UHGV virus genome: UHGV-0101498
Direction: 5' to 3' (one strand)
From: a virus
DNA length: 33,788 bases
Shown: in pieces, positions 10,170 through 27,764 of the stretch
Numbering within the stretch: the stretch's first letter is position 1
How the letters are laid out: each line of letters starts with the position of its first letter
Notes under the pieces: generated by a model
Seen by the model: only the letters and a program-made list of their open reading frames with translations
Database searches by the model: none
What the model was told of the DNA's origin: nothing
Translations under genes and position numbers: made by a program

Positions 10170-10200
10170 AAAAACCGCCCATAAGGGCGGTATATTTTTT
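10168..10200. terminator. Bidirectional rho-independent terminator between the protease operon and Q
   Basis: AAAAAAA-CCGCCC-ataa-GGGCGG-tatTTTTTT; hairpin flanked by an A-run and a T-run. Confidence 0.7.
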
Positions 10201-11224
10201 ATAAATTATAAAGTTCAAATTGAATAACCTCCTCTCCTAACCATTTGTTTACTTCCTTCATTCTTTCCTGTAGTGGGATTAGCTCGTTACGCACAAATAC
10301 CTTGCTGGCTTTTTCTATGTCACCGAATCCTCCTGTGTTCTGAGGAATGATGCCCATTAATTGTGGCGGAACACGATGAACTGCCAGCATGTCATCACGA
10401 GATACGTTTTTTATATTCAGGAACTCATCCTTTGCCGCTACTTCTGACAGAGGGATGATCTGGATGCCATCCTTTTTGCCGTTAGGTGAGTACATAAACA
10501 GGTTGCGGAAGTTGCCCGGGCCCTTGGCGCTTTTCATGGCATGGCGGATGTTGTTCACGTCTTCCTGGTTCTGTGCGGCGTCGGTCATGTACATGATGAA
10601 CCCTGCATGGCTGCCGTTGATGTAATACTTGCGGCGGAACAGTGTGGCGGACTCGTTCAGTAGGGCGGAAGGGATGGCTGACAAGTACTCCGGCAGGCCG
10701 TAAATCTCCTGGCTTAAGTCCGGCTCCATCAGGTGAAAAATGCTGCCTTTGGTGAACTCGTAGGGCTGAGTGCTCATACCGTATTGCACAAACCAGTAGG
10801 TATCAAGATCCAGGCCACGGCGGGTATATTTCGCCAGCGATGGCTCCAGCGACAGAGTGCCCCCGAGGCGGTTAGTGCGCTTTTCCAGATAGGCATTACC
10901 GAATACCAGATAGTCCTGCACAAAGCGGCTGAATGCCTGCTGGCTCAATAGCGGATGCGGAATAAACGTGCTTGTCAGGATGTTGCGCTTAACGGCAATC
11001 GGTGAGCTGTGATGTACGGCTGCACGGTGGGTACGCGCCAGCCCGTCAAAACTCACCGGCGGTTCAAACCAACGCTCCATCTGTACGCATTCCACATAGT
11101 CCAGCAGTTCACGGCGGTCCAGAACAGGAACGGGATCGCCAAAGCTGAATGCTTCGGCTGAAGTCTGGCTTTTATGCTTGAGCTGATTCGTCGCCGCAGC
11201 GCGGTTTTTCTTACTCTTTCCCAT
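10199..11224 (-). CDS. Q: Portal protein (P2 gpQ-like)
   Basis: 341-aa translation in the P2 Q position, convergent with the terminator; ATG at 11224 overlaps the P stop. Confidence 0.85.
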   Translation of the reverse strand: MGKSKKNRAAATNQLKHKSQTSAEAFSFGDPVPVLDRRELLDYVECVQMERWFEPPVSFDGLARTHRAAVHHSSPIAVKRNILTSTFIPHPLLSQQAFSRFVQDYLVFGNAYLEKRTNRLGGTLSLEPSLAKYTRRGLDLDTYWFVQYGMSTQPYEFTKGSIFHLMEPDLSQEIYGLPEYLSAIPSALLNESATLFRRKYYINGSHAGFIMYMTDAAQNQEDVNNIRHAMKSAKGPGNFRNLFMYSPNGKKDGIQIIPLSEVAAKDEFLNIKNVSRDDMLAVHRVPPQLMGIIPQNTGGFGDIEKASKVFVRNELIPLQERMKEVNKWLGEEVIQFELYNL

Positions 11225-12990: not shown

Positions 12991-13036
12991 GGCACAAACC
13001 TACAGCCTTGAATGAAGGCTTTCCCCGCCTGCGGTT

Positions 13037-13054
13037 TGTGTGGTTGTCGGTACA
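13037..13054. promoter_or_regulatory. Late-promoter activator dyad TGT-N12-ACA (Ogr-type) in the P/O divergent region
   Basis: TGTgtggttgtcggtACA seen directly; 86 bp upstream of the O ATG, the same spacing as the dyad before FI. Confidence 0.5.
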
Positions 13055-13132
13055 AATACCGCGCATTGTTTCACTGCCTCCATCACCGCAACCATAAGGC
13101 TCCAGTAAGTTTTTTCTAACGGAGCACGGCTC

Positions 13133-13966
13133 ATGACAGTGAAAGCAAAGCGTTTTCGCATCGGGGTGGAAGGTGCCACCACCGATGGACGCGAAATCCA
13201 GCGTGAATGGCTGGAACAGATGGCAGCCAGCTACAACCCGGCGGTGTATACCGCGCTGATTAACCTTGAGCACATCAAGTCTTATCTGCCGGACAGCACC
13301 TTTAACCGCTACGGCAAGGTGACGGCGCTGTTTGCTGAAGAAATCACGGAAGGTCCGCTGGCAGGCAAGATGGCGCTGTATGCCGACGTTGAGCCAACGG
13401 AGTCCCTGGTGGAGCTGGTGAAAAAAGGCCAGAAATTATTCACCTCTATGGAAGTCAGCCCGAAGTTCGCTGATACGGGCAAAGCCTACCTGGTCGGCCT
13501 GGCTGCCACTGATGACCCTGCCAGTCTGGGCACTGAAATGCTGACATTCAGCGCCAGTGCAGCCCATAACCCGCTGGCAAACCGCAAGCAGAATCCTGCC
13601 AATCTCTTTACCGCTGCAGAGGAAACGGTGATCGAACTGGAAGAAATCCAGGAGGACAAACCGTCCCTGTTTGCCCGTGTCACGGCGCTGTTCACCAAAA
13701 AAGAGCAGTCCGATGACGCCCGGTTCTCTGATGTGCATAAGGCCGTGGAACTGGTCGCCACTGAGCAGCAGAACCTGAGTGCGCGCACCGAAAAATCCCT
13801 GTCTGAGCAGGAAGAACGCCTGTCTGAGCTGGAGACTGCCCTGCAGGCACAGCTGACCGCCTTTAACGAACTGGTGGACAAGCTGAGCCATGAAGACAGC
13901 CGCCAGGACTACCGCCAGCGTGCAACAGGCGGTAACGCCCCCGCTGACACTCTGACCAATTGCTGA
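13133..13966 (+). CDS. O: Capsid scaffolding protein (P2 gpO-like)
   Basis: Contains RFRIGVEGATTDGREIQ...INLEH...YLVGLAATDDPASLGTE, matching P2 gpO as recalled. Confidence 0.85.
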   Translation: MTVKAKRFRIGVEGATTDGREIQREWLEQMAASYNPAVYTALINLEHIKSYLPDSTFNRYGKVTALFAEEITEGPLAGKMALYADVEPTESLVELVKKGQKLFTSMEVSPKFADTGKAYLVGLAATDDPASLGTEMLTFSASAAHNPLANRKQNPANLFTAAEETVIELEEIQEDKPSLFARVTALFTKKEQSDDARFSDVHKAVELVATEQQNLSARTEKSLSEQEERLSELETALQAQLTAFNELVDKLSHEDSRQDYRQRATGGNAPADTLTNC

Positions 13967-13982
13967 TGGAGCACAAAACCTG

Positions 13983-15041
13983 ATGAAGAAGAATACCCGC
14001 TTTGCTTTTAACGCTTACCTGCAGCAGCTGGCGCGTCTGAACGGTGTGGCAGTTGAAGAACTGTCCAGCAAGTTCACCGTGGAGCCGTCCGTGCAGCAGA
14101 CGCTGGAAGACCAGATCCAGCAATCCGCCGCATTCCTGACGCTGATTAACGTCACGCCAGTGACTGAGCAGTCTGGTCAGTTGCTGGGGCTGGGTGTTGG
14201 CAGCACCATTGCCGGAACCACTGATACCACCGCAAAAGAGCGTGAGCCTGTCGATCCGACGCTGATGGTCGATGTGGAATACAAATGCGAGCAGACCAAC
14301 TTTGACACGGTACTGACCTACGCGAAGCTGGACCTGTGGGCGAAGTTTCAGGATTTCCAGGTGCGCATCCGTGATGCCATCGTGAAACGTCAGGCACTGG
14401 ACCGCATCATGATCGGTTTTAACGGCGTGAAGCGTGCGAAAACCTCCAACCGTAGCGAAAACCCGCTACTGCAGGATGTGAATAAAGGCTGGCTGCAGAA
14501 AATCCGTGAAGATGCACCGGATCACGTCATGGGCAGCACCACCACGGGCGGTGAAACCACACCGGGTGCGGTGAAAGTCGGGAAAGGTGGCGAATATGCC
14601 AACCTGGACGCCGTGGTGATGGATGCCGTCAATGAGCTTATCGATGTGGTCTACCAGGACGATGACGATCTGGTGGTGATTTGCGGTCGTGAACTGCTGT
14701 CTGACAAGTATTTCCCGCTGGTCAACAAAGAGCAGGAAAACAGTGAAAAACTGGCTGCCGATATGATCATCAGTCAGAAACGCATGGGTGGCCTGCAGGC
14801 CGTGCGTGCGCCGTTCTTCCCGCCGAATGCACTGCTGATCACCCGTCTGGATAACCTGTCCATCTACTGGCAGGAAGACACCCGCCGCCGCTCAGTTATC
14901 GACAACCCGAAACGTGACCGGATTGAAAACTTTGAATCCGTTAACGAAGCCTATGTGGTTGAGGACTACCGCTGCGCCGCACTGGTGGAAAACATCCAGA
15001 TTGGCGACTTCAGCGCCGCAGCAGCAGAAACCGGAGCGTAA
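13983..15041 (+). CDS. N: Major capsid protein (P2 gpN-like)
   Basis: TRFAFNAYL...FTVEPSVQQTL...GFNGVKRA...MIISQKR, matching P2 gpN as recalled. Confidence 0.9.
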   Translation: MKKNTRFAFNAYLQQLARLNGVAVEELSSKFTVEPSVQQTLEDQIQQSAAFLTLINVTPVTEQSGQLLGLGVGSTIAGTTDTTAKEREPVDPTLMVDVEYKCEQTNFDTVLTYAKLDLWAKFQDFQVRIRDAIVKRQALDRIMIGFNGVKRAKTSNRSENPLLQDVNKGWLQKIREDAPDHVMGSTTTGGETTPGAVKVGKGGEYANLDAVVMDAVNELIDVVYQDDDDLVVICGRELLSDKYFPLVNKEQENSEKLAADMIISQKRMGGLQAVRAPFFPPNALLITRLDNLSIYWQEDTRRRSVIDNPKRDRIENFESVNEAYVVEDYRCAALVENIQIGDFSAAAAETGA

Positions 15042-15044
15042 TTC

Positions 15045-15695
15045 ATGAGCCTGAGTCCCGCACGGCAGCATCGCCTGCGCGTTCAGGCTGAACAGGCCGC
15101 CCGCGAGGGCGGCAGCGTTCGCCACGCGTCGGGCTATGACCTGATGCTGCTGCAACTGGCGGAAGACCGCCGCCGTCTCAAGGGCGTTCAGTCCACGGTC
15201 AAAAAAGCGGAAATCAAGGTGGAGCTGCTGCCGAAGTACGCCGCCTGGGCAGAGGGTGTCCTGGCTGCCGGAGGCGCTCAACAGGATGACGTGCTGATGT
15301 ACGTGATGCTGTGGCGCATTGATGCCGGAGATTATGCCGGGGCGCTGGAGATCGGGCGTCACGCCCTGCGTCATGGCTGGGTGATGCCGTTAGGTAACCG
15401 CAACGTGCAGACCGTGCTGGCAGAGGAAATGGCAGATGCAGCCCAGAGCGCAATGCTTGCCGCCACCGGCTTTGATGCCGATCTGTTGCTGCAGACCCTG
15501 GAGCTGACAGACGGTATGGATATGCCGGACCAGTCACGGGCGCGTCTGCATAAAGCGATTGGCGCTGTCCTGAGTGAAAGAAATCCGGCGTCTGCCCTTA
15601 ATCATCTCAACCATGCGTTACAGCTCGATCCCCGCTGTGGCGTGAAAAAAGACAAACAGCAGCTGGAGCGCAGACTGCGCAATGACAGCCGCTGA
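15045..15695 (+). CDS. M: Terminase small/endonuclease subunit (P2 gpM-like)
   Basis: Position after N; QDDVLMYVMLWRIDAGDYAGALEIG motif resembles P2 gpM. Confidence 0.8.
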   Translation: MSLSPARQHRLRVQAEQAAREGGSVRHASGYDLMLLQLAEDRRRLKGVQSTVKKAEIKVELLPKYAAWAEGVLAAGGAQQDDVLMYVMLWRIDAGDYAGALEIGRHALRHGWVMPLGNRNVQTVLAEEMADAAQSAMLAATGFDADLLLQTLELTDGMDMPDQSRARLHKAIGAVLSERNPASALNHLNHALQLDPRCGVKKDKQQLERRLRNDSR

Positions 15696-15790
15696 CAGAA
15701 CGTGCCCCCGCGCACGGGCGGCACGGGGTGGCGAAAGGCACTGCCACATCAAAACCCCGTCCACCGCCCTCTATTTCAGGAGAAAGCAGC

Positions 15791-16255
15791 ATGAAGTTTG
15801 TTGCGCCAGAACAGGCACCGGAACAGGCGGAAATCATCAGGAATACGCCGTTCTGGCCTGATGTGGACCTGTCGGAGTTTCGCAGTGTGATGCGCACTGA
15901 CGGCACGGTGACGCAGCCGCGTTTAAAACAGGTTGCCCTGTCGGCAATTTCGGAGGTCAACGCAGAGCTGTATGAGTTTCGCAGACGCCAGCAGATGCTG
16001 GGGTATGCCTCGCTGGCAGAAGTCCCGGCGGAACAACTGGACGGCAAAAGCGAGCGCATTCAGCACTATTTCAACGCGGTTTATTGCTGGGCACGCGCCA
16101 TGCTCAACGAACGTTACCAGGACTATGACGCCACGGCATCCGGTGCGAAGCGAGGCGAGGAACTGGCGGAAGCAAGCGGTGATTTATGGCGTGACGCCCG
16201 CTGGGCCATCAGCCGGGTGCAGGATGCGCCGCACTGCACAGTGGAGCTTATCTGA
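15791..16255 (+). CDS. L: Head completion/stabilisation protein (P2 gpL-like)
   Basis: ATG 15791 with GGAGAAAG RBS; position after M. Confidence 0.75.
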   Translation: MKFVAPEQAPEQAEIIRNTPFWPDVDLSEFRSVMRTDGTVTQPRLKQVALSAISEVNAELYEFRRRQQMLGYASLAEVPAEQLDGKSERIQHYFNAVYCWARAMLNERYQDYDATASGAKRGEELAEASGDLWRDARWAISRVQDAPHCTVELI

Positions 16256-16458
16256 TGAAAGTGCGTGCGCATCAGTATGACACGGTGGACGCACTTTGCT
16301 GGCGTCATTACGGGCGCACGCAGGGTGTCACGGAGCAGGTACTGAAGGCAAATCCGGGGCTTGCCGAATACGGCCCCTTTTTACCTCACGGGCTGCAGGT
16401 GGAGCTGCCGGACATTCCGACAACCACCACCGTGCAGACCGTCCAGCTATGGGACTGA
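16255..16458 (+). CDS. X: Tail protein X (LysM-like), 67 aa
   Basis: QYDTVDALCWRHYGRTQGVTEQVLKANPGLAE, matching P2 gpX as recalled. Confidence 0.8.
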   Translation: MKVRAHQYDTVDALCWRHYGRTQGVTEQVLKANPGLAEYGPFLPHGLQVELPDIPTTTTVQTVQLWD

Positions 16459-16461
16459 ATT

Positions 16462-16677
16462 ATGACGCTTGAGCGAATCAGCGCCTTTATCACGTATTGC
16501 ATCGCCGTCGTGCTGGCCTGGCTGGGCGATTTGTCCATCAAGGATGCCTCAACGCTGGGCGGCCTGATGATCGGTGTGCTGATGCTGGCTATCAACTGGT
16601 ACTACAAACACAAAGCCTACCAGCTTCTGCGCGACGGGCAGATCTCGCGGGAGGACTATGAATCCATCAATCGTTAA
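16462..16677 (+). CDS. Holin (71 aa, predicted transmembrane segments)
   Basis: Small hydrophobic protein immediately 5' of the endolysin, in the P2 gpY position. Confidence 0.65.
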   Translation: MTLERISAFITYCIAVVLAWLGDLSIKDASTLGGLMIGVLMLAINWYYKHKAYQLLRDGQISREDYESINR

Positions 16678-17170
16678 ACGCTGCCTTGTCGGGGCCGTGC
16701 TGGCTATTGCTGCCACGCTGCCGGGGTTTCAGCAGCTTCACACCTCCGAGGAGGGACTGAAACTGATCGCCGATTATGAAGGCTGTCGTCTGCAGCCGTA
16801 TCAGTGCAGCGCGGGTGTCTGGACCGACGGCATTGGTAATACGTCGGGCGTCATTCCCGGCAAAATTATTACGGAACGACAGGCAGCTGAAGGGCTGATC
16901 TCCAACGTGCTACGAGTGGAGCGGGCGCTGGAAAGGTGTGTGAAGCAACAGCCGCCGCAGAAGGTGTATGACGCTACGGTGTCGTTTGCCTTCAACGTGG
17001 GGACGGGCAATGCCTGTAGTTCCACGCTGGTGAAATTGCTCAATCAGCGGCGCTGGGCGGATGCATGCCGACAGTTGCCGCGCTGGGTTTATGTGAAAGG
17101 TGTTTTTAATCAGGGGCTGGATAACCGCCGTGCGCGGGAGATGGCCTGGTGTTTACAGGGAGCAAACTGA
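16658..17170 (+). CDS. K: Endolysin, lysozyme-like (P2 gpK-like), probably a SAR endolysin
   Basis: EGCRLQPYQCSAGVWTDGIGNT lysozyme motif; N-terminal hydrophobic CLVGAVLAIAATLPGF. Confidence 0.85.
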   Translation: MNPSIVKRCLVGAVLAIAATLPGFQQLHTSEEGLKLIADYEGCRLQPYQCSAGVWTDGIGNTSGVIPGKIITERQAAEGLISNVLRVERALERCVKQQPPQKVYDATVSFAFNVGTGNACSSTLVKLLNQRRWADACRQLPRWVYVKGVFNQGLDNRRAREMAWCLQGAN

Positions 17171-17171
17171 A

Positions 17172-17549
17172 ATGAAAAAGAAATTAATCAGCGGACTGTT
17201 TCTGATGTTATGGATGGCGCTGTTAATCGCAGCAATGGTGTATCCGCAGGGGATTTTTCCGGTACTGGCAGCGTCCGGCGTTTGGGTAGCCTGTTTGCTG
17301 ACATGGGCGGTAATTTCGGTAGCACTGGCTGCGTTAATTAAGAATGGCCCGCTCTGGCAGGAGTTAAGGGCATCTTTGCTGAAGACAATTACCCGAAAAG
17401 AAAACGTATTTACCAGTTGGGTGATGCGATTGCTGATTGTTGTAAGTCTCGCCTGGACGGGGTGGGCTATTACCCTGGTCTTTTATCTACTGACCGTTAT
17501 TGCCTTCTGGATCACCCGTAATCAGATGGCGCAACAGGTAGCAGCATGA
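17172..17549 (+). CDS. lysA: LysA-like membrane protein (lysis timing)
   Basis: ATG 17172 after GGGAG; several hydrophobic helices; position after K. Confidence 0.7.
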   Translation: MKKKLISGLFLMLWMALLIAAMVYPQGIFPVLAASGVWVACLLTWAVISVALAALIKNGPLWQELRASLLKTITRKENVFTSWVMRLLIVVSLAWTGWAITLVFYLLTVIAFWITRNQMAQQVAA

Positions 17550-17974
17550 ACCGGTTGCTGCTGGTTGTGCTGACGTTATTACTGGCGGCGCTGGGCTGGC
17601 AGACGTGGCGGCTGGCTGATGCCAGCCAGACCATCAGCACGCAGGCAGACGAGCTGCAGAGCAAAAGCCAGGCACTGGCAAAGAGCAATAGCCAGCTTAT
17701 CAGCCTGTCCATTCTGACTGAAACCAATAACCGGGAGCAGGCGCGGCTCTATGCCGAAGCAGAACAGACCAGCACGCTGCTGAGACAACGACAACACCGG
17801 ATCGAGGAACTGAAACGTGAGAACGAGGATTTACGCCGCTGGGCTGATACTCCTTTGCCTGCTGACATTATCCGGCTGCGGAAACGTCCGGCACTCACCG
17901 GAGGTATGGCTTACCGTCAGTGGTTGTCCGCGAGTGACGCCGTGTCGGCTGGATCAGGCAACGCCGCGCACTAA
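17546..17974 (+). CDS. lysB: LysB, Rz-like inner-membrane spanin
   Basis: N-terminal transmembrane helix then coiled-coil-like region; overlaps the lysA stop. Confidence 0.75.
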   Translation: MNRLLLVVLTLLLAALGWQTWRLADASQTISTQADELQSKSQALAKSNSQLISLSILTETNNREQARLYAEAEQTSTLLRQRQHRIEELKRENEDLRRWADTPLPADIIRLRKRPALTGGMAYRQWLSASDAVSAGSGNAAH

Positions 17975-18107
17975 CGGTGATCTGAACGCGTTGCTGGATG
18001 AAACGGAGGCCGCCTGGGCGGTCTGTGCAGACAAAGTGGACATGATTATTGCGTGTCAGGAGCGAAACAGTGAACAAACCACAATCCCTGCGCCACGCCC
18101 TCAATAA
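17817..18107 (+). CDS. lysC: LysC, Rz1-like outer-membrane lipoprotein spanin, out of frame and overlapping the lysB 3' end
   Basis: Lipobox LTLSGC after a signal peptide; begins inside lysB in another frame and runs past its stop. Confidence 0.7.
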   Translation: MRTRIYAAGLILLCLLTLSGCGNVRHSPEVWLTVSGCPRVTPCRLDQATPRTNGDLNALLDETEAAWAVCADKVDMIIACQERNSEQTTIPAPRPQ

Positions 18108-18501
18108 AGCGGTGCCTTATGTCCGCAATAACCCGGACAAACTGCATCTGTTTGTGGATAACGGTTCGCTGGTTGCCACGGGGGCCAGCTCCATGTCGTG
18201 GGAGTACCGTTACACACTGAACGCGGTGATTGAGGATTTCAGCGGCGACCAGAATCTGCTGATGGCCCCGGTTTTGCTGTGGCTGAGGGATAACCAGCCC
18301 GATGCCATCAATAACCCGGCGTTACGGGAAAAGCTATTCACCTTTGAGGTGGATATTCTGCGCAACGATGTCTGTGATATCAGCCTGAACCTGCAACTGA
18401 CGGAACGTGTGCTGGTCAGCACTGACGGCAGTGTGTCGAGCGTTGAAGCTATAGCGGAACCTGATGCACCTGAAGAAATGTGGACGGTGAAACGTGGCTG
18501 A
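18070..18501 (+). CDS. R: Tail completion protein (P2 gpR-like)
   Basis: GTG 18070 preceded by AGGAGC; LHLFVDNGS...YTLN...DF.GD..LL..PVL.WLR.NQPD, matching P2 gpR as recalled. Confidence 0.8.
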   Translation: MNKPQSLRHALNKAVPYVRNNPDKLHLFVDNGSLVATGASSMSWEYRYTLNAVIEDFSGDQNLLMAPVLLWLRDNQPDAINNPALREKLFTFEVDILRNDVCDISLNLQLTERVLVSTDGSVSSVEAIAEPDAPEEMWTVKRG

Positions 18502-18940
18502 ACTGCAGAAGGTGGACGACTGGCTGAGTGCCTTGCTGGCGAATCTGGAACCAGCCTCGAGAAGCCGCATGATGCGCCAGCTGGCGCAGGAACTTCGCCG
18601 GACACAGCAGCAGAATATCAGGATGCAGCGCAACCCTGACGGCAGCAGCTATGAACCGCGACGGGTAACAGCACGCAGTAAAAAAGGCCGTATCAAACGT
18701 CAGATGTTTGCAAAGCTGCGCACCACAAAATACCTGAAAACTGCCGCCAGCACCGACTCTGCCAGCGTGCAGTTTGAAGGCAAGGTGCAGCGCATTGCCC
18801 GCGTTCACCATTACGGCCTGCGAGATCGCGTCAGTCGTAAGGGACCGGAGGTGCGTTACGCAGAGCGTCGCCTTCAGGGTGTAAATGATGATGTTGAGGC
18901 AATGACCCGCGACATGATTCTGCAATGGCTGGCGGGGTGA
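18494..18940 (+). CDS. S: Tail completion protein (P2 gpS-like)
   Basis: RMMRQLAQELRRTQQQNI...MFAKLRT...RVHHYGLRDRV, matching P2 gpS as recalled. Confidence 0.85.
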   Translation: MAELQKVDDWLSALLANLEPASRSRMMRQLAQELRRTQQQNIRMQRNPDGSSYEPRRVTARSKKGRIKRQMFAKLRTTKYLKTAASTDSASVQFEGKVQRIARVHHYGLRDRVSRKGPEVRYAERRLQGVNDDVEAMTRDMILQWLAG

Positions 18941-18944
18941 TCTT

Positions 18945-18962
18945 TGTATCAGCACTGATACA
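18945..18962. promoter_or_regulatory. Late-promoter activator dyad TGT-N12-ACA upstream of V
   Basis: Palindrome TTGTATCAGCACTGATACAA seen directly, 55 bp before the V ATG. Confidence 0.55.
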
Positions 18963-19008
18963 AGTTGCAGCACTGCCGCCTTTCTTCCCCTGATGGCAAC
19001 CTTTCCCT

Positions 19009-19587
19009 ATGAACGCACAATTAACCGAAATCATGCGCCTTATCACCAACCTGATCCGCACAGGGGTAGTCACCGAAGTGGACAGGGAAAACTGGCTTTG
19101 CCGGGTGAAAACGGGCGAGCTTGAAACCAACTGGATCAGCTGGCTGACGCTGCGTGCCGGGAATGCCCGTACATGGTGGCGACCATCGGAAGGTGAGCAG
19201 GTGGTGCTGCTGAGTCTGGGCGGCAATCTGGAAACCGCCTTTGCGCTGCCCGCTGTCTATTCGAATCAGTTCGCACCACCGTCGACGTCGGCGGACGCCT
19301 GCGTGACAGAACATCCTGACGGTGGCTGGTTTGAATACGAACCCGCCACCGGGCGCTGGTATGTCAGGGGCATCAAATCAATGGTCATTGAGGCTGCTGA
19401 CAACATCACCATGAAAACCAGTGAGTTTGTACTGGAGGCTGACCGCACGCGCATTAACAGCGAAGTGGTGATCAATGGTGGCGTTACCCAGGGCGGCGGA
19501 GCGATGAGTTCTAACGGGATCGTGGTTGATGCGCATCAGCATACTGGCGTCCTGAAAGGCGGCGATACAACCGGAGGCCCGGTATGA
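19009..19587 (+). CDS. V: Baseplate spike/assembly protein (P2 gpV-like)
   Basis: Position and similarity pattern to P2 gpV (WISWLTLRAGNARTWW.PS.GEQV). Confidence 0.85.
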   Translation: MNAQLTEIMRLITNLIRTGVVTEVDRENWLCRVKTGELETNWISWLTLRAGNARTWWRPSEGEQVVLLSLGGNLETAFALPAVYSNQFAPPSTSADACVTEHPDGGWFEYEPATGRWYVRGIKSMVIEAADNITMKTSEFVLEADRTRINSEVVINGGVTQGGGAMSSNGIVVDAHQHTGVLKGGDTTGGPV

Positions 19588-19943
19588 CGCTTTATAGCGG
19601 GATGAACAATACCAGCGGCAAAGTCATTACTGATATTGATCATCTGCGCCAGTCGGTGCGGGACATTCTGCTGACACCGCAGGGTAGCCGTATTGCCCGC
19701 CGGGAATATGGTTCCCTGCTGTCGGCACTGATAGATCAGCCACAAAATCCGGCATTACGCCTGCAGGTCATGTCGGCAGTGTATGTGGCGCTGAGTCGCT
19801 GGGAGCCACGGTTGACGCTGGATTCCATCACCATCAACAGCAATTTTGACGGTTCAATGGTGGTGGAGCTGACCGGGCGGCGGAATAACGGTGTGCCTGT
19901 GTCCCTTTCCGTATCAACAGGAGCAGAGAATGGCAGTGATTGA
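19584..19943 (+). CDS. W: Baseplate protein (P2 gpW-like)
   Basis: 119-aa ORF overlapping the V stop; GP46/W-like pattern. Confidence 0.8.
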   Translation: MTLYSGMNNTSGKVITDIDHLRQSVRDILLTPQGSRIARREYGSLLSALIDQPQNPALRLQVMSAVYVALSRWEPRLTLDSITINSNFDGSMVVELTGRRNNGVPVSLSVSTGAENGSD

Positions 19944-20838
19944 CCTTTCGCAGTTGCCTGCACCGCAGATTGTGGATGTGCCGGACTTTGAGACGCTGCT
20001 TGCCGAACGCAAGGCAGAATTTGTGGCGCTTCATCCGAAAGATAAGCAGGAAGCAGTGATCCGCACGCTGGAACTGGAATCTGAACCCGCCACTAAATTG
20101 TTGCAGGAGAACGCTTACCGTGAGTTGCTTCTGCGCCAGCGCATTAACGAAGCCGCGCAGGCGGTGATGGTGGCTTACGCGATGGGCGGCGATCTTGACC
20201 AGCTCGCTGCCAACTACAACGTGACACGCCTGACGGTGACGCCTGCTGATAATGATGCTGTGCCGCCCGTTGCAGCTGTGATGGAAAGCGATGAAGCGTT
20301 GCGCCTGCGTGTGCCTGCAGCCTTTGAAGGGCTTTCTGTTGCGGGGCCAACTGCAGCTTATGAATTTCATGCCCGAAGCGCCGACGGTCGGGTGGCGGAT
20401 GCCAGTGCAACCAGCCCGGCACCTGCAGAGGTGGTGCTGACTGTCCTTAGCCGCGAAGGCGATGGAACTGCAGAAAAAGACCTGCTGGACGTGGTGGAAA
20501 AAGCTCTGAACAGTGAGAACGTCCGCCCGGTGGCTGACCGTCTTACGGTTCGCAGCGCAGAAATCATCCCGTATCGCGTGGAAGCCACCATTTTTCTCTA
20601 TCCTGGACCGGAAGCAGAGCCGGTAATGGCAGCGGCAAAAGCCAGCCTGCAGAAGTACATCGCCAGTCAGACGCGTCTTGGTCGGGATATTCGCCGTAGC
20701 GCCATCTTTGCCGCCCTGCATGTTGAGGGGGTGCAGCGTGTGGAGCTGGCTTCTCCTCTGGCGGATGTGGTCCTGAACAAAACACAGGCGGCATCATGTA
20801 CGCAGTGGAGCGTAACCAACGGAGGAACGGATGAATAG
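19930..20838 (+). CDS. J: Baseplate wedge protein (P2 gpJ-like)
   Basis: ATG 19930 (MAVIDLS) after GGAG; position after W. Confidence 0.8.
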   Translation: MAVIDLSQLPAPQIVDVPDFETLLAERKAEFVALHPKDKQEAVIRTLELESEPATKLLQENAYRELLLRQRINEAAQAVMVAYAMGGDLDQLAANYNVTRLTVTPADNDAVPPVAAVMESDEALRLRVPAAFEGLSVAGPTAAYEFHARSADGRVADASATSPAPAEVVLTVLSREGDGTAEKDLLDVVEKALNSENVRPVADRLTVRSAEIIPYRVEATIFLYPGPEAEPVMAAAKASLQKYIASQTRLGRDIRRSAIFAALHVEGVQRVELASPLADVVLNKTQAASCTQWSVTNGGTDE

Positions 20839-21436
20839 TCTGCTGCCACCGGGTTCAACACCACTGGAGCGCCGACTGGCGCAAACCTGCAGCGGGATTT
20901 CTGATCTGCAGGTGCCGCTTCGTGACTTGTGGAATCCGGCAACCTGTCCGGTCAGTTTCCTGCCTTATCTCGCCTGGGCGTTCTCTGTGGATCGCTGGGA
21001 CGAGGGCTGGACAGAAAGCGTCAAGCGCCAGGTGGTGAAGGATGCTTTTTATATTCATCAGCATAAAGGGACCACCAGTGCCGTGCGGCGGGTGGTGGAG
21101 CCGTTCGGATTCCTGATCCGCATTATTGAGTGGTGGCAGACCGGAGAAACACCGGGCACGTTTCGCCTGGATATCGGCGTGCAGGACCAGGGCATCACTG
21201 AAGATACCTATCTGGAACTTGAGCGACTGATAAGCGATGCCAAACCATGTAGCCGCCACATGATCGGCATGTCCATCAATCTGCAGACCAGCGGCCCGCA
21301 TTGGGTGGGAGCCGCCAGCTATCTTGGCGAAGAAATCACGATCTATCCGTATATCAACGAAACGATTATTTCCGGTGGCACCGCGCATGAAGGCGGGGCG
21401 GTCCATGTTATTGACACAATGAGAGTGAATCCATGA
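20831..21436 (+). CDS. I: Baseplate/tail protein (P2 gpI-like)
   Basis: Position and length; overlaps the J stop. Confidence 0.75.
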   Translation: MNSLLPPGSTPLERRLAQTCSGISDLQVPLRDLWNPATCPVSFLPYLAWAFSVDRWDEGWTESVKRQVVKDAFYIHQHKGTTSAVRRVVEPFGFLIRIIEWWQTGETPGTFRLDIGVQDQGITEDTYLELERLISDAKPCSRHMIGMSINLQTSGPHWVGAASYLGEEITIYPYINETIISGGTAHEGGAVHVIDTMRVNP

Positions 21437-22896
21437 GCACAAAATTTTATACCCTGCTGACGGATATTGGCGCGGCGAAACTTGCCAGCGCCGCCGCGCT
21501 CGGTGTGCCGCTAAAAATTACCCATATGGCGGTGGGCGATGGCGGTGGAGTATTGCCAACGCCGGACGCAAAGCAGACGGCACTGGTAAATGAGAAACGC
21601 CGGGCTGCGCTGAATATGCTTTATATCGACCCGCAGAACAGCAGCCAGATTATTGCCGAACAGGTGATCCCTGAAAACGAGGGCGGTTGGTGGATACGTG
21701 AAGTGGGCTTGTTTGATGAGTCCGGGGCATTGATTGCCGTGGGCAACTGCCCGGAAAGCTATAAGCCGCAACTGGCTGAAGGTAGCGGGCGCACTCAGAC
21801 CGTGCGCATGGTGCTGATTACCAGCAGCACGGACAATATCACCCTGAAAATCGACCCTGCTGTAGTGCTGGCAACCCGCAAGTATGTGGATGACAAGGCA
21901 CTGGAGCTGAAGGTGTACGCGGATGATCAGATGGCAAAACATCTTGCCGCACCGGACCCGCATTCACAGTACGCGCCAAAAGCCAGCCCGACATTTACCG
22001 GAACCCCCAAAGCGCCAACGCCAGCGGCGGGGAATAATACCACGCAGGTTGCGACCACTGCGTTTGTACAGGCGGCACTGACGGCCCTTATTAATGGTGC
22101 GCCAGCCACGCTGGACACGCTGAAAGAAATAGCCGCAGCCATTAACAATGATCCGAATTTCAGTACCACCATTAACAATGCGCTGGCACTAAAAGCACCG
22201 TTGTCGAGTCCGGCACTCACCGGAACGCCAACAGCCCCCACGGCGGCGCAGTCGGTCAACAATACACAGATTGCCACTACGGCTTTTGTGAAATCGGCGA
22301 TTGCAGGAATGGTGGGTTCTGCACCTGCTGCACTGGATACACTGAACGAACTGGCGGCGGCACTGGGGAATGATCCGAACTTTGCCACGACAATGCTTAA
22401 TGCGCTGGCAGGTAAACAACCGCTGGACAATACGCTTACCAATTTGAGTGGAAAGGATGTAGCTGGTCTTCTCACATACCTTGGTTTAGGAGAAGGCTCA
22501 GCATTGCCTGTTGGCGTACCTGTTCCGTGGCCTTCAGTCACACCGCCAACAGGCTGGCTGAAATGCAACGGTGCAGCTTTTTCTGCCGAAGAGTATCCGG
22601 AACTGGCAAAAGTTTATCCGACAAATAAATTGCCAGATTTACGCGGCGAATTCATTCGTGGGTGGGATGATGGAAGAGGAATTGATTCAGGACGGACTCT
22701 CCTGTCTGCTCAGGACGGGAGCATTGAGGCACACGGCCATGATTACAATGGGGCCATCTATACTTCTAGCGGTCCTTCCTGGGCTAATACGACGGATGCG
22801 GGACACCGGGCATATTCGGGATTTACATCATCATATGGCGGGAGCGAAACCCGTCCACGAAATATTGCATTTAACTATATCGTGAGGGCTGCATAA
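21433..22896 (+). CDS. H: Tail fibre protein (P2 gpH-like), C-terminal tail-collar-type receptor-binding domain
   Basis: N-terminus MSTKFYTLLTDIGAAKLA...MAVGDGGG as in P2 H; internal repeats; C-terminal WLKCNGAAFSAEEYPELAKVYP...LPDLRGEFIRGW. Confidence 0.85.
   Translation: MSTKFYTLLTDIGAAKLASAAALGVPLKITHMAVGDGGGVLPTPDAKQTALVNEKRRAALNMLYIDPQNSSQIIAEQVIPENEGGWWIREVGLFDESGALIAVGNCPESYKPQLAEGSGRTQTVRMVLITSSTDNITLKIDPAVVLATRKYVDDKALELKVYADDQMAKHLAAPDPHSQYAPKASPTFTGTPKAPTPAAGNNTTQVATTAFVQAALTALINGAPATLDTLKEIAAAINNDPNFSTTINNALALKAPLSSPALTGTPTAPTAAQSVNNTQIATTAFVKSAIAGMVGSAPAALDTLNELAAALGNDPNFATTMLNALAGKQPLDNTLTNLSGKDVAGLLTYLGLGEGSALPVGVPVPWPSVTPPTGWLKCNGAAFSAEEYPELAKVYPTNKLPDLRGEFIRGWDDGRGIDSGRTLLSAQDGSIEAHGHDYNGAIYTSSGPSWANTTDAGHRAYSGFTSSYGGSETRPRNIAFNYIVRAA
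21982..22422 (+). repeat. Two tandem repeats of about 73 aa inside the tail fibre gene H (phage-fibre repeat)
   Basis: Translation shows ...TGTPKAPTPAAGNNTTQVATTAFV...DTLKEIAAAINNDPNFSTT... repeated as ...TGTPTAPTAAQSVNNTQIATTAFV...DTLNELAAALGNDPNFATT... Confidence 0.7.
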
Positions 22897-23495
22897 TGGA
22901 TAACGCCGTATTAAATAGCGAGCTTATTGCCACGAAGGCGGGGAATATTACTGTTTATAACTATGATGGTGAGACGCGGGAATATATTTCTGCATCAACT
23001 GAATATCTTGCAGTGGGTGTCGGTATTCCAGCATATTCCTGTTTAGACGCTCCTGGTACATCTAAGGCTGGTTATACAATTTGCCGTTCTGTGGATTTAA
23101 AATCATGGGAATATGTGTCAGACCATCGCGGTGAAATCGTCTATAACACCGAAACGGGAGAATCGAAAGAAATCACAGCTCCGGGTGATTATCCTGAAAA
23201 TACAACCACTATCGCCCCGTTAACGCCATACGATAAATGGGATGGTGAAAAATGGGTGACGGATATCAATGCTCAGCACGTAGCGGAAGTGGAAGCGGCA
23301 GAGCAACAGAAATCTGTGCAGCTTCTGTTCGCAAAGGAAAAGATCATTCTTTGGCAGACTGAATTACAGCTGGGAATTATCAGCGACGAAGATAAAGAAA
23401 AACTAATATCTTGGGTGAACTATATCAAAGCTGTTCAGGCAGTAGATACCCAGAAAGCTCACAATATCATCTGGCCTAAAAAACCATTCATATAA
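22896..23495 (+). CDS. G: Tail fibre assembly chaperone (P2 gpG-like)
   Basis: Immediately follows H with an overlapping start/stop; 199 aa. Confidence 0.8.
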   Translation: MDNAVLNSELIATKAGNITVYNYDGETREYISASTEYLAVGVGIPAYSCLDAPGTSKAGYTICRSVDLKSWEYVSDHRGEIVYNTETGESKEITAPGDYPENTTTIAPLTPYDKWDGEKWVTDINAQHVAEVEAAEQQKSVQLLFAKEKIILWQTELQLGIISDEDKEKLISWVNYIKAVQAVDTQKAHNIIWPKKPFI

Positions 23496-23497
23496 AT

Positions 23498-23522
23498 AAA
23501 CGCCCCTTATGGGGCGTATTTT
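23498..23522. terminator. Bidirectional rho-independent terminator between G and the convergent acyltransferase gene
   Basis: AAACGCCCC-ttat-GGGGCGT followed by ATTTTG. Confidence 0.65.
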
Positions 23523-24676
23523 GCTGCTTGCACGTTATTCTTTGGAAGAATTTTATTTGATAAATAATTGGAAAATTTTATCGCGTTATCATCAATTAGC
23601 AATTTAAAAATTAAAGCTGCAAGTATTGAAGATAATAAAGTGATTGGGAAAGTAATAAGTAAAGACTTTCCGTATGAAACTCCTGCATCACCAAGCTTAA
23701 TTACGATCAAAGAAGATATTGAAGCTATTAATGGAAAATGCACCAGATAAAGAGAGTATGATACATCTCCAAGAAATTTACAGGTTTTTGTTTTGAATAA
23801 ATTTGAGATAACTATTGATTTATCAATTGCTATAATAAGAAACATTGAACCAAAGGCTTGAGAAACAATTCTCAAATCAAAGTAAGTTATGTCACTGTTA
23901 TTTATCCAGATACTATGTTCAGTTATAAAATATGGGTATGAACCTAGGTAACATCCTAGTAAAATAAACATAAAGATAATTGTGGTATTAATTTTCTTTA
24001 TATTAACTGAAACATCTGCACAAATCACCCCTAATATAAATCCTAATAGATGACTTGAGCTAAATACCACAATACCCAAAGTATAAAAAGCAAACCTAAT
24101 TCTGGTAGTGCAAACTAGTGGGACCAGAACGAGTACAAGAATTGAGCCAACCAATTCGGTGTGAATGGTCCATAATACTGGGTTTAATGTTTGAACTCCG
24201 TAAAAATATGTACCAATACCCCCTTCCCATACCGCATTCAGTAATGTCATTGTAGTTGGCATCGCTGGGATTACTTGTGATAAAGAGTACACTGCAGTTT
24301 CTGATGAATGAAATCCAATCGTTGTCATCAGAATAAAGGAAAATATAGTAGATGCAATGGTAGGTATTGCAAGACGTGGGTATCTCTTGATAATGGATTT
24401 AGAGTACCATTCTAGCCCCTTCCCTTTGAAAAAGGGAATCGATAGAACCATTCCACTCAAAACGAAGAAAAGCATTACGGCAAAGTGACCATTATATAAT
24501 ATATTAAATGGAGTTTCACTTATGTATTTCTCTCCATAATGATCTATCTGATTTTGAACAAAAACAGATGGTAGAAAGAATTGCATGAAATGGCTTATTA
24601 AAACTATCAAGCAAGCTATACCACGAATACCATCCAGTGCGTGATCTCGGGAAGGCGTCGTTAATTGTTGAACCAT
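23507..24676 (-). CDS. Integral-membrane acyltransferase (acyltransferase-3/OafA-like); candidate O-antigen or surface-polysaccharide acetyltransferase
   Basis: About 390 aa with about 10 predicted transmembrane helices; N-terminal LDGIRGIA...LISHF motif; AT-rich. Alternative start at 24691. Confidence 0.75.
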   Translation of the reverse strand: MVQQLTTPSRDHALDGIRGIACLIVLISHFMQFFLPSVFVQNQIDHYGEKYISETPFNILYNGHFAVMLFFVLSGMVLSIPFFKGKGLEWYSKSIIKRYPRLAIPTIASTIFSFILMTTIGFHSSETAVYSLSQVIPAMPTTMTLLNAVWEGGIGTYFYGVQTLNPVLWTIHTELVGSILVLVLVPLVCTTRIRFAFYTLGIVVFSSSHLLGFILGVICADVSVNIKKINTTIIFMFILLGCYLGSYPYFITEHSIWINNSDITYFDLRIVSQAFGSMFLIIAIDKSIVISNLFKTKTCKFLGDVSYSLYLVHFPLIASISSLIVIKLGDAGVSYGKSLLITFPITLLSSILAALIFKLLIDDNAIKFSNYLSNKILPKNNVQAAKYAP

Positions 24677-24918
24677 CAATTCCTCACACATTGTAATAAA
24701 GTATTAAAATAAAATAGTAAAAGCAGAATATACAAATACGAAAAGCGGAATTATACTTTACAAGAGTGCTTGATGCTATTGTTTTGTCGAGATTTATAAT
24801 CTGATCTTCTGTAGATGTTGTCCTGGCATTGTCCAATCATGATCTATGGGCTGGCTGGCGAACTTTCGATAGTGCGAGTATTGAATGATTTCCAGCCGTT
24901 ACCGATTTTACGTGTTAA

Positions 24919-25167
24919 TTAGTGAACAAACCACTCGTCAGCAGATTCCCAGGTATCTTTCAGAGTCTCCTGAACAAAAGTTTTTGCAGAATCCTTATCT
25001 GCGGTGCGTGTAACAGAAAGGCCATCGTTGCTGGTGGCTTTTACGATCACCTCTACATCGTCATAACGTTTACTGATGCGTCGGGTTAATTCTTCCTTTA
25101 ACGCATCCACAGCACCGGTTGGCATTTTAGTCATTTTTTCTTTGGCTATGCAGATTTCAATACGCAT
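24919..25167 (-). CDS. DinI-family protein (82 aa)
   Basis: [31 protein letters not shown]...[11 protein letters not shown], strongly DinI-like; GAGGGA RBS. Confidence 0.8.
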
Positions 25168-25180
25168 AAAAGTCCCTCTA

Positions 25181-25200
25181 TACTGTGTTTGTATACAGTA
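25181..25200. promoter_or_regulatory. LexA box TACTGTGTTTGTATACAGTA (near-perfect palindrome) upstream of the DinI-like gene
   Basis: CTGT-N8-ACAG seen directly, 14 bp upstream of the start codon. Confidence 0.75.
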
Positions 25201-25208
25201 TTATTTTT

Positions 25209-25228
25209 AACTGTATGGATAAACAGTG
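25209..25228. promoter_or_regulatory. Second LexA box aACTGTatggataaACAGtg
   Basis: CTGT-N8-ACAG, 8 bp from the first box; abuts the stop of the tyrosine recombinase gene. Confidence 0.6.
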
Positions 25229-25855
25229 TCAAGAGGTCTTATTTCTGCTCCTTTGGAGCTCTTCAAAACGATTATGTAAAGATTTCGGATACAGTTCGGT
25301 ATATACCTGCCATAGCACGTTTAATGAACGATGCCCTGTAACCTGGGCGACTTCCTCAATACTAAAACCAGCCTCAAATAAGCGACTTGCCCCTTCTCTA
25401 CGCAAATCATGGTATCGCAGATCTTTAATACCTAATTTGCTTCTTACCCTCTGGAATCCCGCAGTAACAGAAGTGCTGTTATATGGAAAAATGAATTCTG
25501 ATTTTTTGGGTTGTCGTTGGACGATATCCCAGGCTTCCCCAAGCAAGGCTACTTTCATATGGTTGCCTTCCTTTTTACGTGGATCTTTCCTGTCTCTTAC
25601 GAGTATGGATTTTTGTTCCTGATCGAGATCCTCCCATCGTAATCGGCATACTTCACCGATTCGCATACATGACCACACAGAAAATTTGAGGATATCAACG
25701 AACGGAATTTTTGAGCATTTATGTGTAGATCGTTGTTGAAGACCTTCAATGAGCATGTCCAGTTCATCAGATGCCGGTCTACGATTACGACGATTTGATT
25801 TACCAATTAAACCAACGTTTAAGAAAATGCAGAGGTAACAGCTAACTGGCATCAT
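25229..25855 (-). CDS. Short tyrosine recombinase (catalytic domain only, about 208 aa): FimB/FimE-like switch recombinase or 5'-truncated integrase
   Basis: R (RIGEVCRLR), HxxR (YHDLRREG) and H...Y (GHRSLNVLWQVYTELY) motifs present; no N-terminal core-binding domain; no good RBS. Confidence 0.55.
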   Translation of the reverse strand: MMPVSCYLCIFLNVGLIGKSNRRNRRPASDELDMLIEGLQQRSTHKCSKIPFVDILKFSVWSCMRIGEVCRLRWEDLDQEQKSILVRDRKDPRKKEGNHMKVALLGEAWDIVQRQPKKSEFIFPYNSTSVTAGFQRVRSKLGIKDLRYHDLRREGASRLFEAGFSIEEVAQVTGHRSLNVLWQVYTELYPKSLHNRFEELQRSRNKTS

Positions 25856-25882
25856 CTCCGGTTTTTATTCAGGGGGATGATC

Positions 25883-26449
25883 ATGCTTATTGGCTATGTA
25901 CGCGTGTCAACAAATGACCAGAACACCGATTTGCAACGTAATGCACTGAACTGCGCGGGATGTGAGCGGATTTTTGAGGACAAAATCAGTGGCACTAAGT
26001 CCGACAGACCGGGGCTGAAAAAACTACTCAGGACACTATCGGCAGGAGACACGCTGGTTGTCTGGAAGCTGGACATGTTGGGGCGCAGTATGCGGCATCT
26101 TGTTACGCTGATAGAAGAGTTGCGCCAGCGTGGTGTGAATTTCAGAAGCCTGACTGACAGTATTGATACCAGTACCCCAATGGGCCGTTTCTTTTTTCAT
26201 GTCATGGGTGCCCTGGCTGAAATGGAACGCGAACTGATAGTTGAACGTACCAGGGCAGGGCTGGCTGCAGCTCGTGCCAAAGGCAGAGTAGGTGGACGCC
26301 GTCCTAAGTTGACCACCGAACAGTGGGCACAGATTGGGCGTTTACTCGAGGCCGGAGAATCAATACAGCGTATTGCACTGATTTTTGATGTAGGCGTTTC
26401 TACCATTTATAGAAAATTTCCGGCAAATAAGATCAATGAATCCCCCTGA
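25883..26449 (+). CDS. Serine recombinase, DNA invertase of the Hin/Gin/Pin family (188 aa)
   Basis: MLIGYVRVSTNDQNTDLQRNAL...SLTDSIDTSTPMGRFFFHVMGALAEMERELIVERT with a C-terminal HTH, nearly co-linear with Hin/Gin as recalled; GGGGG RBS 6 nt before the ATG. Confidence 0.85.
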   Translation: MLIGYVRVSTNDQNTDLQRNALNCAGCERIFEDKISGTKSDRPGLKKLLRTLSAGDTLVVWKLDMLGRSMRHLVTLIEELRQRGVNFRSLTDSIDTSTPMGRFFFHVMGALAEMERELIVERTRAGLAAARAKGRVGGRRPKLTTEQWAQIGRLLEAGESIQRIALIFDVGVSTIYRKFPANKINESP

Positions 26450-26497
26450 ATCAGCATTATGTTGATTATCCCTGCAAGCAGACAAATACCGTTATTT

Positions 26498-26515
26498 TGT
26501 GTGAATAACGACACA
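26498..26515. promoter_or_regulatory. Late-promoter activator dyad TGT-N12-ACA upstream of FI
   Basis: TGTgtgaataacgacACA seen directly, 86 bp upstream of the FI ATG. Confidence 0.55.
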
Positions 26516-26591
26516 ACTGCGCTTAGCTGTTTGTCAGGCACAATCACTTCAACATAGGGCGAAGCCTAATCCAATCAGGAGGTTCGCCACT

Positions 26592-27764
26592 ATGGCTCAG
26601 GATTACCACCACGGGGTGCGCGTTGTTGAAGTCAACGAAGGCACCCGATCTATTACCACGGTGAGCACCGCCATCGTGGGTATGGTCTGCACGGGCGATG
26701 ATGCCGATGCAAAAATGTTTCCTCTTAATAAACCCGTGCTGATCACTGATGTGCTGACTGCCAGCGGTAAAGCGGGTGAGTCAGGTACTCTGGCCCGTTC
26801 GCTGGATGCCATCGCTGACCAGGCAAAACCCGTGACCATTGTTGTGCGTGTGCCGCAGGGTGAAACGGAAGACGAAACCACGACCAATATCATCGGCGCA
26901 GTGACTGCTGAAGGTAAAAAAACAGGTATGAAAGCCCTGTTATCTGCCCAGTCACAGCTCGGCGTTAAACCGCGCATTCTCGGCGTGCCAGGCCACGACA
27001 CCAAGGCGGTAGCTACTGAGTTGCTGAGCGTGGCGCAAAGCCTGCGTGGATTTGCTTACCTGTCAGCGTATGGCTGCAAGACAGTGCAGGAGGCGATCAC
27101 TTACCGCGAAAACTTCAGCCAGCGCGAAGGGATGCTGATCTGGCCTGACTTTACTGGCTGGGACACGGTGCTGAATGCCGAAGCAACGGCATATGCCACC
27201 GCCCGTGCGCTTGGTCTGCGCGCCAAAATTGACGAGCAGACCGGATGGCACAAAAGCCTGTCCAACGTGGGCGTGAACGGTGTCACCGGAATTTCTGCAG
27301 ATGTGTTCTGGGATCTGCAGGACCCGGCAACCGATGCAGGTCTGCTGAACCAGAACGACGTCACCACGCTTGTGCGTAAAGACGGTTTCCGCTTCTGGGG
27401 TTCCCGCTGCCTGAGTGATGACCCGCTCTTTGCCTTCGAAAACTACACCCGCACGGCGCAGGTGCTGATGGACACGATGGCAGAAGCACACATGTGGGCG
27501 GTGGATAAACCGCTTAACCCGTCGCTGGCCCGCGACATTATCGAAGGTATCCGCGCCAAAATGCGCAGCTTGGTCAGTCAGGGCTATCTCATTGGTGGTG
27601 ATTGCTGGCTGGATGAGTCGGTGAACGACAAAGACACACTGAAAGCCGGAAAACTCACCATCGACTACGACTACACGCCAGTGCCGCCACTTGAAAACCT
27701 GATGCTGCGTCAGCGCATCACCGATCAGTACCTGGTGAATTTCGCCAGCCAGGTCAGCGCGTAA
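26592..27764 (+). CDS. FI: Contractile tail sheath protein (P2 gpFI-like)
   Basis: 390 aa; position and P2 FI-like pattern. Confidence 0.9.

Follow-up and report, generated by a model that had tools for sequence, protein, structure and literature searches.

Introduction

Invertible fibre segments have been described in Mu (G segment, invertase Gin), P1 (C segment, Cin) and e14 (P segment, Pin), in which a DNA invertase gene lies beside a segment bounded by inverted 26-bp crossover sites and the left site splits the fibre gene. A locus of the same layout, with a Gin-like invertase, was analysed here in the virus genome UHGV-0101498, a stretch of 33,788 nucleotides (the window) that holds the tail region of a P2-like prophage. 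At positions 25,229 to 26,449 of the window a tyrosine recombinase open reading frame (ORF) and the serine invertase gene stand back to back. Unlike in the Mu, P1 and e14 segments, the second fibre set was absent and non-fibre cargo and an integrase fragment (int') were found instead; one crossover site was a hybrid, one orientation was predicted to be non-productive, and the invertase lacked a catalytic arginine.

Recombination by invertases at quasi (secondary) crossover sites was reportedly observed by Iida and Hiestand-Nauer in 1987, in laboratory events on plasmids and on the chromosome. The junction analysed here resembled such Cin, Gin and Pin events in that a genuine site was joined to a poor match sharing the core dinucleotide and the AAACC/GGTTT bases, with a hybrid site as the product. 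It differed from them in that the product was fixed in natural prophages, carried cargo, involved several invertase types and had apparently spread between backbones. For segments of fibre genes, horizontal exchange at crossover sites is said to have been reported by Sandmeier, Iida and Arber in 1992 and by Sandmeier in 1994. As in that exchange, the boundary between backbone and exchangeable DNA was a crossover site and the same segment occurred in unrelated phages, whereas the unit described here also added cargo of the lysogenic-conversion type and part of an integrase gene.

Din-family invertases use 26-bp crossover sites and can act in trans, and quasi-sites have been described for them (PMC4134206 and its references); segment switching in P2-like prophages has been described as well (PMC4134206, PMC4272514). 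Quasi-site recombination by Din-family invertases and fibre-segment exchange at crossover sites are already known. In the literature, no description was found of capture that recurs in nature at a quasi-site within the gene of an integrase, of non-fibre cargo inside an invertible segment, or of an identical cassette spread between unrelated prophages. Our analysis indicated that invertase-mediated capture at a quasi-site of the integrase gene int, with exchange of the resulting cassette, is the likely explanation of the recombinase pair.

Results

Composition of the recombinase gene pair

The tyrosine recombinase ORF (25229-25855, minus strand, 208 aa; Pfam Phage_integrase, E 2.6e-21) and the serine recombinase ORF (25877-26449, plus strand, 190 aa; Pfam Resolvase, E 1.7e-51, and HTH_7, E 6.5e-16) were divergent, with only 21 bp between their starts (25856-25876), or 27 bp if the invertase start is taken at 25883, as in Gin. 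An earlier interpretation made from the letters of the DNA (the sequence-only reading) had pointed out this tight divergent arrangement and the missing N-terminal arm- and core-binding domain of the tyrosine recombinase, and both were confirmed; the Phage_integrase match covered residues 31-189 against profile positions 7-169 of 172, which is the catalytic domain only.

The 208-aa ORF was composed of two unrelated parts. Its residues 15-208 were 100% identical to residues 172-365 of the integrase of L004, a prophage at dusA in E. coli WP4-S18-ESBL-09 (related loci are given L numbers throughout). Only 25229-25815 was integrase DNA, namely the 587 bp of int' that form the 3' part of the donor gene, and the fortuitous ATG and first 14 codons were supplied on the minus strand by the phage flank (25816-25876) read through the crossover site. 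The same ATG opens a silent alternative fibre-tip ORF in the P2-like phage 500465-1. Consistently, megablast split the region in two: 24849-25823 matched dinI and the 3' part of the 1098-bp int gene of the lambdoid phage mEp460 with 97.6% identity, and 25809-26600 matched the invertase and sheath genes of phage 500465-1 with 99.6% identity. The dinI-int DNA was 97-99.9% identical to that of mEp460-type and dusA-integrating prophages.

The sequence-only reading had left the choice between a FimB/FimE-type switch recombinase and a truncated integrase, and the alignment as a fragment of a longer integrase, an outcome which that reading itself had set against a FimB/FimE-type enzyme, decided for the latter. 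The ORF was assigned as a truncated integrase because residues 1-171, with the arm-binding and core-binding parts, and a start codon of its own were missing, because no promoter-like site was found upstream of it, and because its place was in the middle of the tail operon, away from the attachment site at a prophage end. Mapping of the L012 genes onto the window put the integrase gene that belongs to the prophage itself at the left end. FimB and FimE are similar to the ORF in length and share the tyrosine recombinase catalytic domain; unlike them, the ORF consisted of the C-terminal 194 residues of an integrase plus 14 unrelated codons and had no cognate inverted repeats, the sole inverted repeat with the right geometry being the crossover pair of the invertase. 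The 208-aa ORF is, by its sequence, a passenger integrase fragment with no predicted role in switching.

The remnant was nevertheless visible to annotation. Gene callers reported it as a 109-aa "integrase" (25229-25558, minus strand), which PHROG 25190 (109 positions) matched end to end (E 4.8e-75). Int genes at dusA that carry a frameshift or are interrupted by an IS (L020, L022, L024, L025) gave rise to the same 109-aa call, and PHROG 25190 appears to be a family of fragments. NCBIfam gave no useful name for int'. The 208-aa and 190-aa ORFs yielded no records in exact-protein look-ups, gene callers choosing other starts, and the 109-aa and 188-aa versions were matched.

Crossover sites and boundaries of the cassette

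Two 26-bp crossover sites bounded the segment and were inverted relative to each other, with matching TT/AA core dinucleotides. At the left site the outer half was of the P2-like backbone type and the inner half of the cassette type, as comparison of half-sites with L002, L003 and L004 revealed. At the right site the outer half CGTTTAAGAAAA and all DNA rightward belonged to the phage, and the non-consensus inner half ACCAATTAAACC and all DNA leftward belonged to the integrase gene, so the switch in identity between integrase and phage was located inside the 26-bp site. The native integrase gene at this place reads ACCAATTAAACC AA GTTTAAGTAGAT, or ATCTACTTAAAC TT GGTTTAATTGGT on the opposite strand (native int sequence ATCTACTTAAACTTGGTTTAATTGGT), and its half GGTTTAATTGGT supplies the inner half of the hybrid site. 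The native sequence was regarded as a quasi-site, since its likeness to a crossover site was confined to the core-proximal bases.

Six outer half-sites had the int' inner half-site as their partner, always with the TT/AA core as the point of joining. Three of these were allelic right sites of P2 type (TTTTCTTAAACG, CTTTCATAAACG and TTTTCATAAACG), one was of the L003/L029 type (TTATAAAAAAGG), one of the L005 type (GGATAAAAAACC), and one was the left outer half of the fibre gene H in the metagenome contig L006 (TTCTCACATACC). Exact-pattern scans of IMG/VR found neither the window-type junction nor its flipped form. A looser pattern (int half-site, AA, any non-int base pair) recovered one locus in IMG/VR (L005) and one in JGI metagenomes (L006), and none in GTDB representative genomes.

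The block between the two sites was 3.3 kb long and contained a fibre tip, a fibre assembly gene, an O-acetyltransferase-like gene, a LexA-boxed dinI and int'. A classical invertible segment precedes the invertase in phage 500465-1, as it does in many prophages of this lineage found at ybjL-ybjM-grxA, in the order constant part of H, crossover site, tip and assembly gene, opposite-strand assembly gene and tip, second site, invertase. Classical segments of this lineage occurred in both orientations, exchanged at the core dinucleotide (L014 versus L017 and L018), in line with the published accounts of switching in P2-like prophages. In the window only one tip and assembly set was present (22483-23495), relatives carrying two in opposite orientation, and the block replaced the second half of the usual segment, with its alternative tip and assembly gene. 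The boundary between the constant and variable parts of H coincided with the crossover site, as in relatives. The idea that the locus is a decayed invertible tail-fibre cassette was correct as to its origin in such a cassette; mere decay did not describe it, since the second half had been swapped for foreign DNA, with breakpoints in the invertase crossover sites.

Among 5426 complete E. coli genomes, the best matches covered exactly the stretch from core to core, with ends at 22470/22478 and 25820/25823. In L004 the block, beside dusA and with a full-length int, showed seven differences over 22470-25823, four of them in the left site. L003 is an unrelated prophage that lies near yciI-tonB and has a Mu-like baseplate and an invertase only 53% identical. 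Its cassette showed 0 mismatches over 3307 bp, ended at the same base and had another outer half-site attached. Two further loci had P2-like backbones. L026 was identical to the window from 22441 to 25821 (cassette, 0 mismatches) and its flanks were diverged by 3.30% and 4.13%; the drop in divergence from 3-4% to zero took place no more than 29 bp from the left site and, on the right, inside the outer half-site. L027 had flanks diverged by 3.37% and 1.36% and 2 mismatches in the cassette.

Origin of the cassette

These comparisons suggested a route in which an invertase of the Gin/Pin family cut and rejoined DNA inside an integrase gene, with the right site of the phage and the int quasi-site as partners; the two recombinase genes would then be adjacent because an invertase of this family had recombined DNA within int. 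The donor would be the right-arm end of another prophage, with a fibre tip, an assembly gene, an O-acetyltransferase-like moron, dinI and the 3' part of int. If two such prophages lay in opposite orientation on one chromosome, a first inversion between fibre site and fibre site and a second between the right site and the int quasi-site would exchange the segments and return the chromosome between the prophages to its original state. Later spread to other backbones would proceed by exchange at the left and hybrid sites and, in some cases, by homologous recombination inside the cassette, as in L021.

Several observations weigh against this proposal, and some of them would favour invertase-independent illegitimate recombination at AAACCAA(G) microhomology, followed by homologous spread through the flanking fibre and tail genes. 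The native int quasi-site was poor, its match to the inner-half consensus being only GGTTTA and its outer side fitting only with a 1-nt shift. At each breakpoint 7-9 nt (AAACCAA) were common to the partners, so that the exchange point is placed only to within this stretch. Searches of IMG/VR and GTDB genomes, and of the complete E. coli genomes with a synthetic 142-nt query, gave no reciprocal product, in which a fibre tip would follow the 5' part of int. L014, of the same lineage, had a nearly identical fibre tip up to about 23161, and by this likeness the left boundary of the cassette could equally stem from homologous recombination. The invertase allele of the window, described below, also stood beside classical segments in both orientations, and therefore trans-acting invertases or residual activity must be assumed. 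The flipped junction of L006 came from a contig that ends 270 bp past dinI and whose cargo is unlike that of the window, and L006 may be either a flipped sister cassette or a primary capture intermediate. Finally, when 5.8 billion clustered proteins were searched for the fusion of H with Int', the only matches were ordinary fibre proteins that aligned with its first 61-78%; from this missing fusion we infer that flipping is rare, or rarely assembled.

On balance, the microhomology route was considered unlikely. The int half-site had been joined to four independent classes of partner (right sites of P2 type, L003 type and L005 type, and the left site of H), all of which were genuine crossover half-sites, and three of these classes adjoined invertase genes only 53-73% identical to one another, leaving no flanking homology on that side. 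Seven-nucleotide matches occur everywhere, yet the same dinucleotide was used each time. Homologous spread also sits poorly with the abrupt loss of divergence at both sites of L026. Placing the left breakpoint at the crossover core by comparison with phage 500465-1 alone had to be softened, as L014 shares the fibre tip; the picture of a cassette bounded by sites as a whole was restored by the comparisons with L026 and L003.

A reversed history, in which dinI-int had always stood beside an invertase and prophages with a full-length int were derived from it, was scarcely credible. Some prophages do place pin next to dinI-int (H46-H55; L005, L016, L028, L029), which makes an invertase a frequent near neighbour of dinI-int. 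However, a 5'-truncated gene cannot precede the intact 365-aa gene present at dusA in thousands of genomes, and the identical cassette across diverged backbones indicated recent transfer. Neither the gene arrangement of the window nor its right junction was present in the 5426 complete E. coli genomes, in which the L003-type junction had 2 records.

Serine invertase allele

The invertase matched the Gin structure 3uj3 over residues 3-186 (E 1e-90). Over the 792 bp shared with phage 500465-1 there were three differences, all non-synonymous and all in the invertase: Q29R, R65M (26076, AGG to ATG) and R161I (26364, AGA to ATA) in Gin numbering. Genes of this family have a Fis-bound recombinational enhancer in their 5' part, and the whole invertase gene of the window departs from that of phage 500465-1 at these three positions only. 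The codon changes of R65M and R161I were both G-to-T transversions in AGR codons, and the third difference was A/G. R29 was common among invertase alleles, and M65 and I161 were unique to this allele, which was found on 52 contigs, among the seven alleles compared. The six other alleles (at least 1000, 303, 71, 19, 13 and 11 contigs) all kept both arginines.

R65 aligns with R68 of gamma-delta and Tn3 resolvase, and R161, a residue of the helix-turn-helix domain, is shared by Gin and the two further invertases in the comparison. Ser9, Arg7 and Arg68 were present and the equivalent of resolvase R68 was Met (WKLDMLGRS), leaving the catalytic set (the Ser nucleophile and the equivalents of resolvase R8, R68 and R71) incomplete. 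In Tn3 resolvase, R68A and R68K abolished recombination and lowered cleavage about 1000-fold (PMC2794168). By analogy, the R65M/R161I allele is probably inactive, a member of the family by descent, and the segment would be locked in the productive orientation unless the invertase of another prophage acts in trans. The invertase had been taken as intact; it is indeed of full length, and two family-conserved arginines differ from those of every other allele examined.

The same cassette stood beside arginine-intact alleles in L021, L026, L027 and L028, so R65M/R161I is not a necessary consequence of capture. The possibility of a private inactivating mutation after capture was rejected in view of the occurrence of the allele on 52 contigs, many of them with classical segments in both orientations, and of the intact alleles beside the cassette. 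In three loci with the same allele (L012, L015 and L019), similarity to the window restarted at 25053, inside dinI. An IS1-type transposase gene lay just upstream of the equivalent point in L015, and in L012 the stretch 9003-25052 was missing, and with it the genes for capsid and tail and the greater part of the cassette, which makes it a defective prophage.

Flipped junction and the question of a switch

In L006, a 97% match to 14881-22488 was followed directly by the reverse complement of 25818-24919. This join is the product expected from inversion between the left site and the hybrid site, and it encodes the in-frame protein of 544 aa that the reading frames had led us to expect, in which H(1-350) is fused to Int(172-365). 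The shared sequence at the join was about 10 nt, which is too short for an assembly chimera. Whichever origin applies to L006, its join indicates that an int half-site recombined with a genuine crossover half-site, and since a flipped junction exists elsewhere, the hybrid site should still be able to recombine. Flipped junctions were found only there, in a related phage with different cargo, and no flipped form of the exact cassette was found in IMG/VR, in the complete E. coli genomes or by protein search. From the gene order, flipping should swap the fibre tip for Int' and take the tip and the assembly gene out of the late operon, with harm to the phage, and such harm fits the near absence of flipped forms.

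With regard to function, the locus had also been suggested to be a phase-variation switch for the adjacent cargo. A working switch, in which the invertase flips the segment to regulate cargo or virion production and int' acts as a second, FimB/FimE-like recombinase, would be in keeping with the inverted sites and their matching cores, with the L006 junction, with the arginine-intact invertases of relatives that carry the same cassette, and with the complete catalytic domain retained by int'. However, int' was a truncation product of a 365-aa integrase that took its start from phage flank and had no promoter-like site upstream, and the invertase in the window was without a catalytic arginine. 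All 15 retrieved loci with an int'-invertase junction (15/15) shared one orientation, against a single flipped junction, and flipping would give a fibre::Int' fusion and displace the assembly gene. The acyltransferase gene and dinI, with its promoter-like site and LexA boxes, lay wholly within the segment, and because these signals are inside it the cargo keeps its promoter context in either orientation; control of the cargo by inversion was not borne out. A working switch was therefore judged very improbable, and the operation of the two recombinase genes as a paired two-enzyme switch was not supported.

Cargo genes and neighbouring features

The features of the locus are listed in Table 1. 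The resident invertase sits just before the sheath gene, and the sheath, tube and tape-measure genes follow to the right of the recombinase pair. The acyltransferase also matched PHROG 3333 (O-acetyltransferase, E 3e-26) and had no NCBIfam match. The dinI-like product scored E 2.1e-20 against NCBIfam PRK10597, which is under the curated cut-off of that model, and the mEp460 record annotates a promoter at the place equivalent to the promoter-like site of dinI.

Table 1. Positions of genes, sites and signals at the locus
Feature	Position	Strand	Remarks
Tail-fibre gene H, 487 aa	21433..22896	+	Pfam Phage_tail_fib 1-150, Collar 361-408
Constant part of H	to about 22480		variable tip (Sv, with the Collar domain) begins past the left crossover site
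Left 26-bp crossover site, TTCTCACATACC TT GGTTTAGGAGAA	22469-22494	+	inverted repeat with the right site
Tail-fibre assembly gene, 199 aa	22896..23495	+	Pfam Caudo_TAP, E 3.3e-32
Bidirectional terminator-like hairpin	23500..23517		between the fibre assembly and acyltransferase genes
Membrane acyltransferase gene, 394 aa	23507..24691	-	resembles O-acetyltransferases/O-antigen acetylases; Pfam Acyl_transf_3, E 6e-27
dinI-like gene, 82 aa	24919..25167	-	Pfam DinI, E 1.1e-19
Two LexA-box-like motifs, CTGT-N8-ACAG	25183-25198, 25211-25226		upstream of dinI
Promoter-like site	25232-25203	-	upstream of dinI
int', codons 172-365 and stop of a 365-aa tyrosine integrase gene	25229..25815	-	
Right hybrid 26-bp crossover site, ACCAATTAAACC AA CGTTTAAGAAAA	25802-25827	+	core AA 25814-25815
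Phage-derived flank, crossover core to invertase gene	25816..25876		
Gin/Pin-type serine DNA invertase, 188 aa	25883..26449	+	upstream in-frame ATG at 25877

Only three matches to CTGT-N8-ACAG were present in the whole window. The third (8282-8297) preceded a second DinI-like gene, located in the early region and equivalent to L012 7273-7506, by about 240 bp, and by analogy with phage 186 this motif and gene may form a Tum-like SOS-induction module.

The cargo to the left of dinI differed among int' loci, comprising this acyltransferase, another acyltransferase, a ClpP-like protease, pin remnants, ynaE and a hypothetical protein. In L029, which has an L003-type backbone, the ClpP-like protease gene (7255-7806) replaced the acyltransferase in the dinI-int' cassette. 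L005 is a more distant P2-like phage with a DNA methylase gene between invertase and sheath; its int'-ended cassette contained a second resolvase gene, truncated at the N-terminus, and a DDE transposase apparently interrupting an acyltransferase gene (L005 6040-6792 and 8599-10095). In the dusA prophage L022, a SLATT_5 gene followed by a reverse-transcriptase (RVT_1) gene (6862-8761) occupied the moron slot beside dinI-int, and the two genes resemble a defence system of the retron or DRT type. Fibre tips varied as well: P0040-P0046 were P2-like fibre proteins of 543 aa whose constant 350 residues were 98% identical, and their tip of about 193 residues, without a Pfam domain, is predicted to be another exchangeable tip.

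Discussion

We tentatively put forward, as a possibility short of an expectation, that invertible fibre segments are a general invertase-driven exchange platform, in which Din-family invertases acting at genuine and quasi sites swap whole segments between two prophages of one chromosome. Integrons and other cassette platforms offer an analogy only: there too, cargo lies between recombinase sites and is found in several backbones. Unlike in integrons, the enzyme in question is a serine invertase normally acting only on sites in cis, neither a capture site nor a promoter is dedicated to the purpose, and nothing pointed to free circular cassettes.

For the locus itself, the puzzling gene pair would be explained as the scar of site-specific recombination and not as a new switch, and int' ORFs of this kind should no longer be annotated as integrases. 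The locus would also provide a clean natural case of a serine invertase recombining at a quasi-site within a coding gene. A cassette with a putative O-acetyltransferase and an SOS-box dinI appears to pass unchanged between diverged and unrelated prophages, with breakpoints at crossover sites. If the exchange platform is real, it would move lysogenic-conversion and defence-type cargo between unrelated prophage families, beyond the fibre tips themselves, with the dinI-int end of dusA-type prophages as a recurrent donor, and morons would have a route of transfer separate from homologous recombination and integrase-mediated events. If general, this would add a mechanism to the trade in prophage cargo, and invertase sites would have to be counted as recombination boundaries in analyses of mosaicism.

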